Source of the DNA: Escherichia phage 232Ecol030PP
Sequence record: PP355090.1
Strand: one strand, 5' to 3'
Length of the DNA: 64,000 nucleotides
The notes below the pieces were generated by a model. That model was given only the letters and a program-made list of their open reading frames with translations. It made no database searches and was not told the origin of the DNA. Of this stretch, positions 31,994 to 40,717 are shown piece after piece; position 1 is the first letter of the stretch, and each line of letters starts with the position of its first letter. The position numbers and the translations under genes were made by a program.

Positions 31994-32410
31994 TTAAATG
32001 TAAATATTTTTGCCGTAATACTTATACCAGTGTGGCTTCATTAAAATTTTTTCATCGAGTCGTTGTTGACTCAACTTAATAGCTGATTTGCATGGATTAT
32101 AATCATTTTTCCATTCTACTGGAATATCGCTGATGTCAGGAACTTCAGTATCTTTTATACTGAACCCGCGTTTTAAGCATTCCGTTATAATGTCCGATTG
32201 ACGCTTTCGCAAAAATTCTAACTTATCGTAAAAGAAAGTAACATGACCAGAACCTAAAATAAATTTAGAAGATATTTTAAAATCTTTAACGCGCTTACCG
32301 TTTGCCACATGCTTACGAACTATACCAAAAACACGCGGCAATTCACGGTATTCTGCGATTAAATGTTGATCAGCAAGTTCAGATACTAAAGTCAAATTAA
32401 TACGAGTCAT
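31994..32410 (-). CDS. denV: endonuclease V (pyrimidine dimer DNA glycosylase) DenV
   Basis: 138 aa [17 protein letters not shown]...; recognised as T4 DenV. Confidence 0.9.
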
Positions 32411-32434
32411 TTTATCCCTCCAAGTAACTGTGAA

Positions 32435-32465
32435 TATACTATCACAATTCTAGGAGAAAGTAAAC
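32435..32465 (-). promoter_or_regulatory. T4-type early promoter (denV)
   Basis: GTTTAC (plus 32460-32465) with -10 TAGTAT on minus strand. Confidence 0.5.
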
Positions 32466-32469
32466 AACT

Positions 32470-33000
<531 letters not shown>

Positions 33001-35877: not shown

Positions 35878-36166
35878 AGTATTTCCTTAGGTTAATTGAG
35901 ATTTAAAATCCATGAGAGTATTATACTCCGGATAGTTTGTAAACTATTTCAACATCGCCTTTTGCTGCTTTATAACCTTCAGCCCAAGATACAACCGAGT
36001 TTTTATCCGAAGATTCAAATTCTGGCATTGGGCTTTCGCCAATGTTCACGCAGTATGTTTCTTCATTTTCGTCGAACCAAATAATTAAAGTAGTCATTTA
36101 TTTCTCCGTTTTCTGTATTTGTTTTGATAAGTCTATAATAACACCGTCCTTGGCGTTTGTACACAA

Positions 36167-36430
36167 TTATTTCATATTATTGAAATATTCTTCTGCGATT
36201 TCATCGTTATCATGGTAAACTTTAGAAGACAGTTTAACATAACCTTCAGCAGTGAACATGTTAATCACAACCTTTACAGTATACCACTGACCATCTTCAT
36301 TACCCATTACTGCATAGGTTTCAAACATCGGATGGTCAGGACCGATAACTTTAATATCATTCACTGTACGACCGAAATCTTCTGAAACACATTTCATAAA
36401 GAAGTTGAACAGTTCGCCGTAATTATCCAT
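36167..36430 (-). CDS. hypothetical protein
   Basis: ATG at 36430 with GGAG RBS (track start is TTG). Confidence 0.5.
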   Translation of the reverse strand: MDNYGELFNFFMKCVSEDFGRTVNDIKVIGPDHPMFETYAVMGNEDGQWYTVKVVINMFTAEGYVKLSSKVYHDNDEIAEEYFNNMK

Positions 36431-36464: not shown

Positions 36465-36502
36465 ATAGTTGTATAGTACCATGGAAGAACAGGGATGTAA
36501 AC
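36465..36502 (-). promoter_or_regulatory. T4-type early promoter
   Basis: GTTTAC (plus 36497-36502) and TACTATACAACTATC block. Confidence 0.5.
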
Positions 36503-36636
36503 AGTTTTGTGAAAAAATTTTTTAAAAAGTTTTAGGGAATTCTAGGGCAGGGAGGGGCAATTAAAAGATAGGATAATATATTATAAAGGGTAGAAACTAA
36601 ATGATGTCTAGAGAGGCCCGGAAAGGCCTAGATACC

Positions 36637-36664
36637 AAAAAGCCCCAACCTTTCGGTCGGGGCT
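36637..36664 (-). terminator. intrinsic terminator (copy 1 of identical 28-mer hairpin)
   Basis: aaaaagccccaacctttcggtcggggct; GC stem plus T-run on minus RNA, directly after stop of 36671..37144. Confidence 0.6.
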
Positions 36665-36670
36665 AAAATG

Positions 36671-37144
36671 TTATTTGATTTGTTTAGCAGACCAAATGCG
36701 GTCTTTAATAATTTTTTGGATGTCTTCAACATACTCAAGAGAGTGAACATGTGGGTTATCTTTGAAACTATAAGCACGGGCTAACTTTTGGCCTTCGGTT
36801 TTGATTACTAAAAGCTCTTTAAGGATAGCTTCATATTTGGAGATAATTCCTTTAACAATATTTTTCTCTTGTGTGACTTTAGGATCTGCTTTAGGAGCAG
36901 GTTTACCTGAAGCCTTTGCAAAAGCAGCTCCAGTAGCAACTAAACTTTTCCAAGCCATACTAACTGCGTTCCCTGTAAATCCTTCGGCTTTCATATCACG
37001 AGCAAATTGGAATCGTGATTCATCGGAAGCATCTTTATAGGAATATTTACCCGCGGCAATGGCAGCTTTTGCAACAGCTTGAATTTCGGTGCTAGATGCT
37101 TCATTTAACACCGCTTCATTTAAAAATTGAGCATATGATTTCAT
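36671..37144 (-). CDS. internal-protein-like protein with capsid-targeting-sequence-like N-terminus
   Basis: N-terminus MKSYAQFLNE resembles T4 CTS MKTYQEFIAE with an L-x-E protease site; gene flanked by two identical terminator hairpins. Confidence 0.55.
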   Translation of the reverse strand: MKSYAQFLNEAVLNEASSTEIQAVAKAAIAAGKYSYKDASDESRFQFARDMKAEGFTGNAVSMAWKSLVATGAAFAKASGKPAPKADPKVTQEKNIVKGIISKYEAILKELLVIKTEGQKLARAYSFKDNPHVHSLEYVEDIQKIIKDRIWSAKQIK

Positions 37145-37190
37145 CTTATTTCCTGTTTTAATTCGTGGTTTTAATATACTTATTTATACT

Positions 37191-37218
37191 AAAAAGCCCC
37201 AACCTTTCGGTCGGGGCT
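37191..37218 (-). terminator. intrinsic terminator closing the tRNA/stable-RNA transcription unit (copy 2 of 28-mer)
   Basis: Identical to 36637-36664; hairpin plus T-run on minus strand. Confidence 0.6.
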
Positions 37219-37269
37219 AAGCCTTGCGGCAACCTTGTCGGGGTTCCACCTGCTAAGGCAAGTGTTTGT

Positions 37270-37427
37270 ACGAAACGCCGGGATTCGAACCCGGTTATTA
37301 AGCAGTTGACGCTACTCAATATTTTTAAAAGGCCATATCTCGACCATATCCGAACGTTCCGTCAAAAACGCTACTCGGCTTACGGCAAAGATATTTCCTC
37401 GAATCGATAATTCGGTGCGCCGTTTCT
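37270..37427 (-). ncRNA. stable RNA with tRNA-like acceptor/T-arm end (T4 species RNA C/D-like)
   Basis: 6-bp acceptor-like pairing GAAACG/CGTTTC closing a canonical T-arm (CCGGG TTCGAAT CCCGG) around a ~140-nt body; no ORF. Confidence 0.35.
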
Positions 37428-37534
37428 GCTGTGATATAAGGGGGCATTAACAAAACATAAAGATTTATTAATGCCAGTCCTTAAACAGGGAACATCAGTC
37501 CGACGACTTGCCGGTAGCGACCCGGCTTCTTGTC

Positions 37535-37610
37535 TGGTCGAGGCAGTAGGGATCGAACCTACGACCCAGGACTTAGAAGGTCCTTGCTCTTCCTTCTGAG
37601 CTATGCCTCG
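37535..37610 (-). tRNA. tRNA-Arg (anticodon TCT)
   Basis: Hand-folded cloverleaf: acceptor CGAGGCA/TGCCTCG, anticodon loop CTTCTAA, T-loop TTCGATC, encoded CCA. Confidence 0.8.
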
Positions 37611-37614
37611 GATT

Positions 37615-37689
37615 TGGCGGACGTGATAGGATTCGAACCTATAACCAATCGCTTAACAGGCGATCGCTCTGCCATTGAGCTACACATCC
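37615..37689 (-). tRNA. tRNA-Asn (anticodon GTT)
   Basis: Acceptor GGATGTG/CACGTCC (one G-U), anticodon stem ATCGC/GCGAT, loop CTGTTAA, T-loop TTCGAAT, CCA. Confidence 0.7.
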
Positions 37690-37693
37690 AAAT

Positions 37694-37780
37694 TGGTGGG
37701 GAGTGATGGAGTCGAACCACCCGAGTCGCAATGACAATGGATTTACAGTCCACACCGCTACCTCTACGGGATAACTCCCC
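37694..37780 (-). tRNA. tRNA-Tyr (anticodon GTA), class II with long variable arm
   Basis: Acceptor GGGGAGT/ACTCCCC, anticodon loop CTGTAAA, variable arm TGTCATTGCGACTCG, T-loop TTCGACT, CCA; architecture like bacterial tRNA-Tyr. Confidence 0.6.
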
Positions 37781-37789
37781 AAATTAATT

Positions 37790-37864
37790 TGGTGGCCCTG
37801 GGTGGAATTGAACCACCATCTGGCGATTATGAGTCGCTTGCTTGAACCTTCCAGCTACAGGGCC
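37790..37864 (-). tRNA. tRNA-Ile (anticodon CAT, lysidine-type; could be scored as Met)
   Basis: Acceptor GGCCCTG/CAGGGCC, anticodon loop CTCATAA, T-loop TTCAATT, CCA. Confidence 0.7.
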
Positions 37865-37865
37865 T

Positions 37866-37941
37866 TGGTGCTGATTGACGGAATCGAACCGCCGACCTTC
37901 TCATTACAAGTGAGTTGCTCTACCTACTGAGCTAAATCAGC
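37866..37941 (-). tRNA. tRNA-Thr (anticodon TGT)
   Basis: Acceptor GCTGATT/AATCAGC, anticodon loop CTTGTAA, T-loop TTCGATT, CCA. Confidence 0.8.
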
Positions 37942-37946
37942 AAAAC

Positions 37947-38036
37947 TGGCGGAGGCGATAGGATTTGAACCTATGAGTCGCCGGAGCGACTGCCGGTTTT
38001 CAAGACCGGTGCATTAAACCACTCTGCCACGCCTCC
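37947..38036 (-). tRNA. tRNA-Ser (anticodon TGA), class II
   Basis: Acceptor GGAGGCG/CGCCTCC, anticodon loop CTTGAAA, long variable arm, T-loop TTCAAAT, CCA. Confidence 0.8.
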
Positions 38037-38038
38037 AG

Positions 38039-38112
38039 TCTCCGTGGCAGGATTTGAACCTACGACATTCTGCTCCCAAAGCAGACGCTCTACCAAACTG
38101 AGCTACACGGAG
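38039..38112 (-). tRNA. tRNA-Pro (anticodon TGG)
   Basis: Acceptor CTCCGTG/CACGGAG, anticodon loop TTTGGGA, T-loop TTCAAAT; CCA not encoded. Confidence 0.75.
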
Positions 38113-38122
38113 TAAATTAAAT

Positions 38123-38196
<74 letters not shown>

Positions 38197-38201
38197 AAAT
38201 T

Positions 38202-38288
38202 TGGTGCGAGAAGTGGGACTCGAACCCACAAGGAAATCATTCCGCAGCATTTTAAGTGCTGTGCCTTTACCAATTTGGCCATTCTCGC
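38202..38288 (-). tRNA. tRNA-Leu (anticodon TAA), class II
   Basis: Acceptor GCGAGAA/TTCTCGC, anticodon loop CTTAAAA, long variable arm, T-loop TTCGAGT, CCA. Confidence 0.8.
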
Positions 38289-38289
38289 G

Positions 38290-38362
38290 CTGGGAATAAA
38301 GGACTCGAACCTTTGCATCCTGGAATCAAAATCCAGTGCCTTACCAACTTGGCTAATTCCCA
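38290..38362 (-). tRNA. tRNA-Gln (anticodon TTG)
   Basis: Acceptor TGGGAAT/ATTCCCA, anticodon loop TTTTGAT, T-loop TTCGAGT; CCA not encoded. Confidence 0.75.
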
Positions 38363-39333: not shown

Positions 39334-39351
39334 TTTATTCTCCTCAGTAGT

Positions 39352-39391
39352 AGATAGGGTAATAGTATCACTACCCTATCTAAAAGTAAAC
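39352..39391 (-). promoter_or_regulatory. T4-type early promoter embedded in 10-bp perfect palindrome
   Basis: GTTTAC (plus 39386-39391); -10 block GTGATACTAT flanked by agatagggta/taccctatct inverted repeat. Confidence 0.5.
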
Positions 39392-39625
39392 TTATTTTTT
39401 ACGAAAAATTGATTTATTTTCTGCTGCCCATTTTTCAATAACTGCAGCAGGACCAGTAACAACAATTTTATCACCGTAATCTTCTGCGGCGAGTTGACCG
39501 AAATTATCTAATGCATCACGAAGAACTCCATGAGGCATTTCACCCATTTTATCTTTCTTGCCAGTGTAAATAAACTCAACTTTTACATCAGCAGTTTCAG
39601 CAATAAATTCTTGGTAAGTTTTCAT
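39392..39625 (-). CDS. ipI: internal protein I (IPI-like) with capsid targeting sequence
   Basis: From ATG at 39625: MKTYQEFIAE... exact T4 CTS decapeptide; an upstream in-frame ATG at 39637 is also possible. Confidence 0.65.
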   Translation of the reverse strand: MKTYQEFIAETADVKVEFIYTGKKDKMGEMPHGVLRDALDNFGQLAAEDYGDKIVVTGPAAVIEKWAAENKSIFRKK

Positions 39626-39651
39626 TTTGATTTCCATTTGGTTTTGTTTTG

Positions 39652-39689
39652 ATAGGGTAATAGTATCACAACTAAAACCCTATGTAAAC
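39652..39689 (-). promoter_or_regulatory. T4-type early promoter with embedded palindrome
   Basis: GTTTAC (plus 39684-39689); GTGATACTATTACCCTATC block; atagggt/accctat inverted repeat. Confidence 0.5.
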
Positions 39690-39701
39690 AACTTTGTGAA
39701 A

Positions 39702-39959
39702 TTATTTTAAATCTTCTAATCGTTTCTTCATCTTAGAACCATTTTTAGCAATTTCTCCTGCATCGGAGCATAATGCTAAAAGTGCTTTAACTTTAGTTTG
39801 GTCTCCTTTAAAAGATGAAGGATCGACCGCAGCAGCAAGTTCTTTAATACGAGAGAAAAGACGCTCAGCTTCAGCTAAAGCCATTCCAAGCTTTACTTCC
39901 ATACCGTGGGAAGATTCAGTGATAGTAGTTTTTGTAGCAAACTCTTTGAAAGTTTTCAT
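39702..39959 (-). CDS. internal-protein-like protein with variant CTS
   Basis: N-terminus MKTFKEFATKTTITE resembles CTS consensus with an I-T-E site; small, lysine/alanine-rich. Confidence 0.5.
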   Translation of the reverse strand: MKTFKEFATKTTITESSHGMEVKLGMALAEAERLFSRIKELAAAVDPSSFKGDQTKVKALLALCSDAGEIAKNGSKMKKRLEDLK

Positions 39960-39981
39960 TTTTATTTTCCTAATTAATTTT

Positions 39982-40020
39982 GATGAGGTAATAGTATCAC
40001 TACCTCATCAGTATGTAAAC
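39982..40020 (-). promoter_or_regulatory. T4-type early promoter embedded in palindrome with compensatory changes
   Basis: GTTTAC (plus 40015-40020); loop atagtatcac identical to 39362-39371 but arms gatgaggta/tacctcatc co-vary. Confidence 0.5.
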
Positions 40021-40032
40021 AACTTTGTGAAA

Positions 40033-40717
<685 letters not shown>

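Follow-up and report, generated by a model that had tools for sequence, protein, structure and literature searches.

The analysis of a stretch of 64,000 nucleotides from Escherichia phage 232Ecol030PP (record PP355090.1; hereafter the window) points to a minus-strand gene located between rnaC and e.8, designated here the A gene, as the probable source of a previously unrecognised internal protein. To judge from its sequence, this protein would be packaged in the head and injected, and its gene would form part of a self-contained late module placed behind the terminator of the tRNA/rnaD/rnaC unit. The internal-protein interpretation had been advanced in a preliminary description of the same DNA, and the comparative evidence largely supports it, with corrections regarding the origin of the flanking hairpins and the mobility of the gene.

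Anatomy of the module

The source region is that of a Tequatrovirus, being 99% identical to many genomes of this genus (fFiEco06, PYPS2T and others), and the window is collinear with T4 over denV, e, e.1-e.8, rnaC/rnaD, the tRNA cluster, the ipI locus and 57B/57A. The features of the module and of its immediate surroundings are as follows.

36671-37144, minus strand: A gene, phrog_2280, 157 aa, N-terminus MKSYAQFLNE
37115-37144, minus strand: predicted capsid targeting sequence (CTS), codons 1-10, with an L-N-E/A site after E10
Within the A gene, minus strand: second L-N-E/A, codons 13-15, after E15 (sequence motif)
37181-37188, minus strand: TATAAATA, T4 late-promoter consensus, 36 nt upstream of the ATG, overlapping the end of the upstream repeat
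37186-37220 (stem 37195-37218), minus strand: upstream repeat copy, intrinsic terminator of the tRNA/rnaD/rnaC unit (folding, T4 alignment)
36632-36666 (stem 36641-36664), minus strand: downstream repeat copy, predicted terminator ending the cassette transcript (folding)
36610-36637, minus strand: second, weaker hairpin after the terminator (folding; in filled and empty alleles)
36668-37221, no strand assigned: 554-bp segment without counterpart in T4 (T4 alignment; placement ambiguous within the repeat)
37269-37407, minus strand: rnaC (species 1 RNA) homologue, mapped from the T4 annotation
37414-37533, minus strand: rnaD (species 2 RNA) homologue, mapped from the T4 annotation
36167-36430, minus strand: e.8 homologue, conserved right-hand neighbour, with an early promoter at about 36473-36501

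Re-reading of the sequence returned the reading frame announced in the preliminary description, with the same length and the same N-terminus. Its dN/dS lies between 0.04 and 0.22, which indicates strong purifying selection and for this reason a real gene. The A protein matches phrog_2280 (PHROGs v4) from end to end, as do the product of a second type of gene, B, considered below, and gp153 and gp154 of phage fHe-Yen9-01 (E-values from 1e-53 to 1e-60). This family is labelled "unknown function" and has no category, and in the PHROGs and GenBank records examined the A protein and its relatives are all named "hypothetical protein" or "unknown function"; the interpretation of the leader as a capsid targeting sequence is new relative to the phrog_2280 annotation.

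Alignment of the window with T4 yields about 94% identity on both flanks and one clean gap of 554 bp. The segment contains one repeat unit, the late promoter TATAAATA, a Shine-Dalgarno AGGA and the A ORF. The TATAAATA box is missing from the empty T4 allele and is conserved in Tequatrovirus, Dhakavirus and fHe-Yen9-01, with AATAAATA found in Mosigvirus. Occurring 13 times in the window against 10.7 expected in such AT-rich DNA, the box is by itself not significant; what gives it weight is the place where it lies and its retention in several genera. The module as a whole is predicted to be a self-sufficient unit of late transcription, which the terminator of the tRNA unit would shield against read-through from upstream.

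Some observations concern the neighbourhood of the module. Ten tRNA genes are packed contiguously at 37535-38362, including those for Asn and Tyr, which T4 lacks; the homing endonuclease gene segB, carried by T4 and PST between tRNA-Arg and the next tRNA, is absent there. At the e.7 position a 58-aa ORF (35921-36097, minus strand) replaces the 336-bp e.7 of T4, similarly to RB14ORF134 and PST ORF130. Many GenBank records place short "hypothetical proteins" (for example MSSVNCLITGFESRRF...) over rnaC/rnaD and the terminator hairpin (window 37158-37453, minus strand; examples at L003 2990-3270 and L012 1688-1977); these ORF calls overlap the T4 stable RNAs and are almost certainly spurious. A search of Rfam returned tRNAs only, with no family for the hairpin, rnaC or rnaD.

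The flanking terminators and the empty T4 allele

The A ORF is enclosed by a direct repeat of 35 nt whose copies agree at 34 of 35 positions, and the identity of the 28-nt cores (36637-36664 and 37191-37218), which the preliminary description had reported, is confirmed. Each copy folds into a 10-bp stem with seven G-C pairs, a GAAA loop and a U5 run (-20.3 kcal/mol), the z-scores of the two 40-nt hairpin stretches being -3.9 and -5.1, and the sequence signature of a Rho-independent terminator, a GC-rich stem-loop followed by a U-run, is thus found after rnaC and again after the A ORF. Even when three mismatches are allowed the 22-nt hairpin core occurs in the 64 kb at these two sites only, none being expected by chance. 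In T4 the hairpin is single-copy; rnaC has its annotated 3' end about 50 nt upstream of it, which makes it the terminator of the tRNA/rnaD/rnaC unit. The hairpin, rightly described as present in two identical copies, is consequently not a cassette-specific element. The second hairpin, placed earlier at about 36616-36631, also folds in the window, and its function is doubtful because it is not complementary in T4.

The single T4 hairpin has a left flank of the upstream type and a right flank of the downstream type (GGTATCTA...), a mixture to be expected if a crossover took place inside the repeat. One could argue that the two hairpins are independent terminators that resemble each other by functional convergence and that play no role in the gain or loss of the gene, considering that a terminator hairpin is expected after rnaC and after a late gene alike, and that in Mosigvirus, Dhakavirus and GRNsp7 the downstream hairpin does differ from the upstream one, identical flanks being restricted to the Tequatrovirus arrangement. 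We consider this highly improbable, as the near-identity of the repeats (34 of 35) takes in, besides the stem, the loop and the TTA leader as well as the U-run and the GTAT behind it, and as the T4 allele is the exact product of a crossover within the repeat. Also, phage FL08 and the window have an identical 75-nt upstream flank and yet their ORFs stand at dS = 0.54, a combination which indicates, at the sequence level, recombination or homogenisation.

The predicted capsid targeting sequence

The resemblance of MKSYAQFLNE to the T4 capsid targeting sequence with its L-x-E protease site, noted from the window, is kept family-wide at the positions that have been functionally defined. We have aligned 11 diverse phrog_2280 members from Tequatrovirus, Mosigvirus, Dhakavirus, Tegunavirus and Klebsiella phages, with the B type included, and observed that M1, F7, L8 and E10 are invariant and that position 4 is Y or F, with positions 3, 5 and 9 variable; the A protein itself has Y4, F7, L8 and E10. 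In the CTS of IPIII, amber suppression assigned targeting to residues 4 and 7 and processing to residues 8 and 10 (summarised in PMC9026906), and a CTS of 10 residues is all that foreign proteins need in order to enter T4 heads (PMC3012670, PMC9026906). Outside the leader the A and B types are less than 30% identical, and by BLASTP they have only the first 11 residues in common; likewise, in a profile comparison of the A protein with IPIII the leader alone aligns. The predicted sites for the gp21 prohead protease in the A protein are FLNE/A at residues 7-11 and VLNE/A at residues 12-16, and in the homologues the corresponding site reads FLTE, FLKE or FLAE.

Of the 619 frames in the window that open with ATG and encode 40 aa or more, only two fit the motif M-x-x-[YF]-x-x-F-[ILV]-x-E, namely the A ORF and the internal protein gene at 39392-39625. 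About one third of the positions differ between the CTS codons of these two genes, and the resemblance is therefore held at the level of the protein. Against the internal-protein reading stands the fact that five of the ten residues of the A leader are not those of the canonical MKTYQEFIAE. With a signal of just 10 residues, half of them non-canonical, with packaging deduced from the sequence and with every annotation reading "hypothetical", the A protein might also be an ordinary late accessory protein that does not enter the virion, its CTS likeness being due to chance or being a relic of descent from an internal protein gene. We regard this as rather unlikely: a relic would not hold four functional positions invariant over five genera and in a paralogue diverged beyond BLAST recognition, the motif is found elsewhere in the window only in a known internal protein, and in the T4 system a CTS of this length does package foreign proteins (PMC9026906, PMC3012670).

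A further case concerns the tRNA region of phage phiR1-RT, where a different ORF, of 52 aa and with the leader MKTYIEFINE, was found in purified virions by LC-MS/MS (PMC6893735), so that the product of a CTS-bearing ORF can be associated with the virion even when the ORF lies at neither of the two classical loci. This ORF lies between Tegunavirus tRNA genes (g134, Gp134, in phiR1-RT, L015 7421-7579; L004 3805-3963), was detected with 2 peptides and 21% coverage, is annotated as hypothetical only and is probably another unrecognised small internal protein.

Properties of the predicted protein

The layout of the A protein comprises the CTS-like N-terminus, a three-helix N-domain (residues 18-75, approximately), a PAPKADPK linker and a C-terminal helical hairpin (88-155), and the same order is seen in the AlphaFold2 model, with a disordered leader, the three-helix domain, the Pro/Lys/Ala linker and the hairpin (pLDDT 76, pTM 0.46, corresponding to medium confidence). 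According to this model the protein is all-helical, and its C-terminal hairpin would be long and coiled-coil in character. The protein is basic and lysine-rich, with a pI of about 9.5 and 21 Lys; the predicted mature form would have 15.5-16 kDa, a pI of about 9.5 and 20 Lys.

Searches of Pfam, NCBIfam and PDB sequences with the A protein gave nothing above noise, and the PDB sequence matches, which were coiled-coil hits to the C-terminal helices only, were set aside. A fold search of the AlphaFold2 model against the PDB and BFVD identified no known fold and recovered family members alone, including one of Serratia phage PS2; as it stands the model offers no functional clue. An exhaustive representative search with the protein yielded few relatives. 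Weak multi-copy matches of large bacterial surface proteins with Ig repeats to residues 14-81, approximately, were rejected as spurious, resulting from a short motif, AALAAGSYSYKAF ('AAGxYSYKA'), that is multiplied by the repeats. Homology to Ip4 of PST was likewise discarded, there being no similarity and the shared length of 157 aa being a coincidence.

These properties bear on the possibility that the A protein is packaged through its CTS and serves mainly a structural or morphogenetic purpose, as an accessory of the core or scaffold or in DNA condensation, as has been suggested for IPIII. A basic protein (pI 9.5, 21 Lys), modelled as all-helical with a long coiled-coil-like hairpin, would suit such a task, the gene is under strong purifying selection at a position conserved in several genera, ipII and ipIII are missing from this phage, and IPIII mutants have reduced head assembly (PMC9026906). 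Nevertheless, we find this role unlikely, since the absence of the gene from T4, T2, T6 and PST and its truncation or frameshift in several genomes (ECO4, SfPhi01) make it dispensable, since Ip3 itself inhibits a GmrSD enzyme (PMC12373910), and since there is no clean anticorrelation with ipIII: ECML-134 has ipIII and a filled site, and phi25-307 has ipIII and an empty one. A related proposal, that the A gene is a substitute for the missing ipIII, was rejected on the same grounds, as ipIII occurs with filled and with empty sites.

The classical internal protein loci of this phage

The two ORFs pointed out earlier near 57B were recovered, that at 39392-39625 beginning with MKTYQEFIAE and that at 39702-39959 with MKTFKEF, and they match phrog_8111 and phrog_3499, 'internal virion/head protein'; they are the classical genes of the ipI locus. 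The site of ipII/ipIII is indeed empty, as had been stated, denV (31994-32410) and e (32470-32964) being separated by 59 bp (32411-32469). A search by DNA found ipIII in only 278 phage records, 129 of which are named Escherichia, and because of this low number most sequenced Tequatroviruses may be without ipIII.

Each of the two ipI-locus genes is bracketed by copies of a 71-nt element present three times (39349-39419, 39647-39717 and 39978-40048), the outer copies having 86% and 61% identity to the middle one. The element consists of a T4 early-promoter-like GTTTAC...GTGATACTAT and a stem-loop, and matches the described 'IP-associated PeSL-like elements' (PMC2839356). The two genes are 77% identical over 44 nt at their 5' ends.

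Polymorphism and history of the site

The comparison of the e.8-tRNA interval across T4-like phages, which had been recommended as a check, was carried out and reveals a polymorphic site. The empty T4 site was searched against 50,697 phage records, 728 of which have the flanks, and a spread sample of 60 records, 56 of them informative, was sorted by the span between the flanks.

Empty: 9 sampled records (T4, T2, T6, RB3, ACG-C40)
About +554 bp: 20 sampled records (many Tequatrovirus isolates)
About +660-690 bp: 3 sampled records (Pu-Krd-SF5, FL12, FL23)
One flank matched only: 24 sampled records (ECML-134, YUEEL01, Mosigvirus records)

The states encountered among T4-like phages are empty, as also in PST, A alone, B alone, A and B in tandem, and decayed remnants. 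Pu-Krd-SF5 has a B-type gene alone, encoding 188 aa with the leader MKTYAEFLTE, and in YUEEL01 and ECML-134 the A gene is followed by a B gene of 187 aa, each with its own late-promoter-like box and terminator. In GRNsp7 and Dhakavirus 005 the A gene is followed by an unrelated ORF of 184 aa, and in ECO4 and SfPhi01 the A alleles are truncated or frameshifted. The 184-aa product is a predicted membrane protein (MKLLKYLSWVLLVPLDF...) that has no CTS and is encoded between the A gene and e.8 (L010 602-1156 in GRNsp7; L011 602-1156 in Dhakavirus 005), and is a further cargo of the variable rnaC-e.8 site. The A gene was found in 510 records, once per record, and the B gene (187 aa) in 165.

The homologues that were checked in distant genera occupy the same neighbourhood, downstream of the tRNA cluster, as in Jiaodavirus KpV477, and that of Mosigvirus MM02 lies immediately behind the rnaC hairpin. 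Tegunavirus fHe-Yen9-01 (L004 2126-3241) has two tandem phrog_2280 genes after the hairpin and TATAAATA; their products, gp154 and gp153, begin with the CTS-like leaders MLQYNEFLKE and MLEYSEFLKE. In the closely related phiR1-RT (L015 6780-6930) all that remains is the hairpin, TATAAATA and a short C-terminal stub of the gene (ending in AEKYAKSRK and a stop codon), so that in this other genus the module has decayed independently.

The earlier suggestion of a cassette shuffled by recombination therefore holds in part: T4 has one repeat unit and the gene less, and alternative and tandem CTS-bearing genes do occur at the site, but each genome inspected has the gene at a single locus that is always the same. 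The A gene is polymorphic for its presence or absence, and an ancestral origin followed by repeated loss is more probable than a cassette that moves about. In this simplest history the T4 allele would be a precise deletion between duplicated terminators.

Comparison with known systems

[quoted passage not shown] Ip1, Ip2 and Ip3 of T4 are specific inhibitors, each of a different GmrSD type IV restriction enzyme (Silas et al. 2025, PMC12373910), and the available literature describes two Ip loci, denV-e and trna.4-57B. The A protein resembles Ip1/Ip2/Ip3 and the Ip4-Ip13 variants (Repoila et al. 1994; for the CTS, Mullaney & Black) in its N-terminal decapeptide, with an aromatic residue at position 4, F7, I or L at position 8 and E10 followed by Ala, in being small, dispensable and variably present among close relatives, in the lack of similarity between families past the leader, and in the repeated stem-loops on both sides.

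The differences are also several. The A gene lies at a third locus, rnaC-e.8, a distinction that is descriptive and not mechanistic; the leader is MKSYAQFLNE in place of MKTYQEFIAE; and the body is unrelated to Ip1-4 and belongs to a PHROG other than those of the ipI-locus proteins, which does not exclude membership in the functional class, since the known Ips are also without mutual homology. The flanks are GC-rich intrinsic terminators and a late promoter, whereas those of the T-even genes are AT-rich early-promoter stem-loops. Packaging of the A protein is, for its part, a prediction. In addition, strong purifying selection and a conserved location make the A gene less 'hyperplastic' than the classical Ip loci, which counts against the internal-protein reading.

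The borders of the module are similar to PeSL elements (Arbiol et al. 2010, PMC2839356; Comeau et al. 2014, PMC4122927) in that short composites of terminator and promoter edge variable genes. For PeSL composites a part in recombination has been proposed, by which they would bring about indels and the shuffling of modules (PMC2839356, PMC4122927). However, the promoter is here a late TATAAATA and there an early sigma-70-like one, and two repeat copies in a 64-kb window contrast with a family that is genome-wide. A second precedent is provided by deletions in T4 whose endpoints lie at inverted repeats of the GGGC/GCCC type (Mosig et al. 1998, as summarised in PMC2839356): within the terms of that summary, the GCCCC...GGGGC hairpin is comparable, and the T4 allele corresponds to a precise deletion in which one small, non-essential ORF is lost from between a pair of these motifs. 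The difference resides in the 35 nt of direct homology present here, with which ordinary homologous recombination is enough and a special pathway is unneeded.

Proposed mode of action

We infer for the A protein a course of late transcription, packaging, cleavage, injection and function as follows. The upstream terminator would stop read-through, and the A gene would be transcribed from its own TATAAATA late promoter during the building of proheads. The decapeptide MKSYAQFLNE would then act as CTS and bring the A protein into the scaffolding core, where the gp21 prohead protease may cut after L-N-E (at E10 and/or E15), leaving a basic (pI about 9.5), all-helical protein of some 15.5-16 kDa in the DNA-filled head. 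Ejected with the DNA, this protein would probably neutralise a host defence at the onset of infection, by analogy with Ip1-3. As for the gene, the near-identical 35-nt terminator repeats would let homologous recombination delete the module precisely, giving rise to the T4 allele, and together with the conserved flanks they may also permit the exchange of modules, from which the empty, A, B, A+B and decayed states would result.

In the literature we found no virion proteomics, N-terminal sequencing, genetics or biochemistry for phrog_2280 members, and nothing usable in the published virion proteomics of the carriers fHe-Yen9-01, APCEc01 and the fPS phages; phiR1-RT, which does have virion proteomics, carries only the decayed remnant of the A gene.

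Biological significance

Of all phage proteins, the internal ones arrive first in the host cytoplasm. The candidate family considered here is common, unannotated and missing from the model phages, being carried by hundreds of therapeutic and environmental Tequatrovirus isolates and not by T4, T2 or T6. A broader proposal, which we put forward tentatively, as a possibility somewhat short of an even chance and by analogy with the known Ips, is that the site behind the tRNA/rnaC terminator might be a third internal-protein locus of T4-like phages, accommodating a two-branch phrog_2280 family (A in about 510 phages, B in about 165) whose members would be targeted to the capsid, injected and engaged in disarming a defence that Ip1-3 do not counter, and that it may have been overlooked because T4, T2 and T6 carry the deleted allele. 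If the interpretation is true, the 'two Ip loci' picture would need correcting, and the module would be a natural case of a unit bounded by a late promoter and terminators that is lost by recombination between duplicated terminators. The family would also make available a collection of candidate effectors against host defences, and a determinant of host range.
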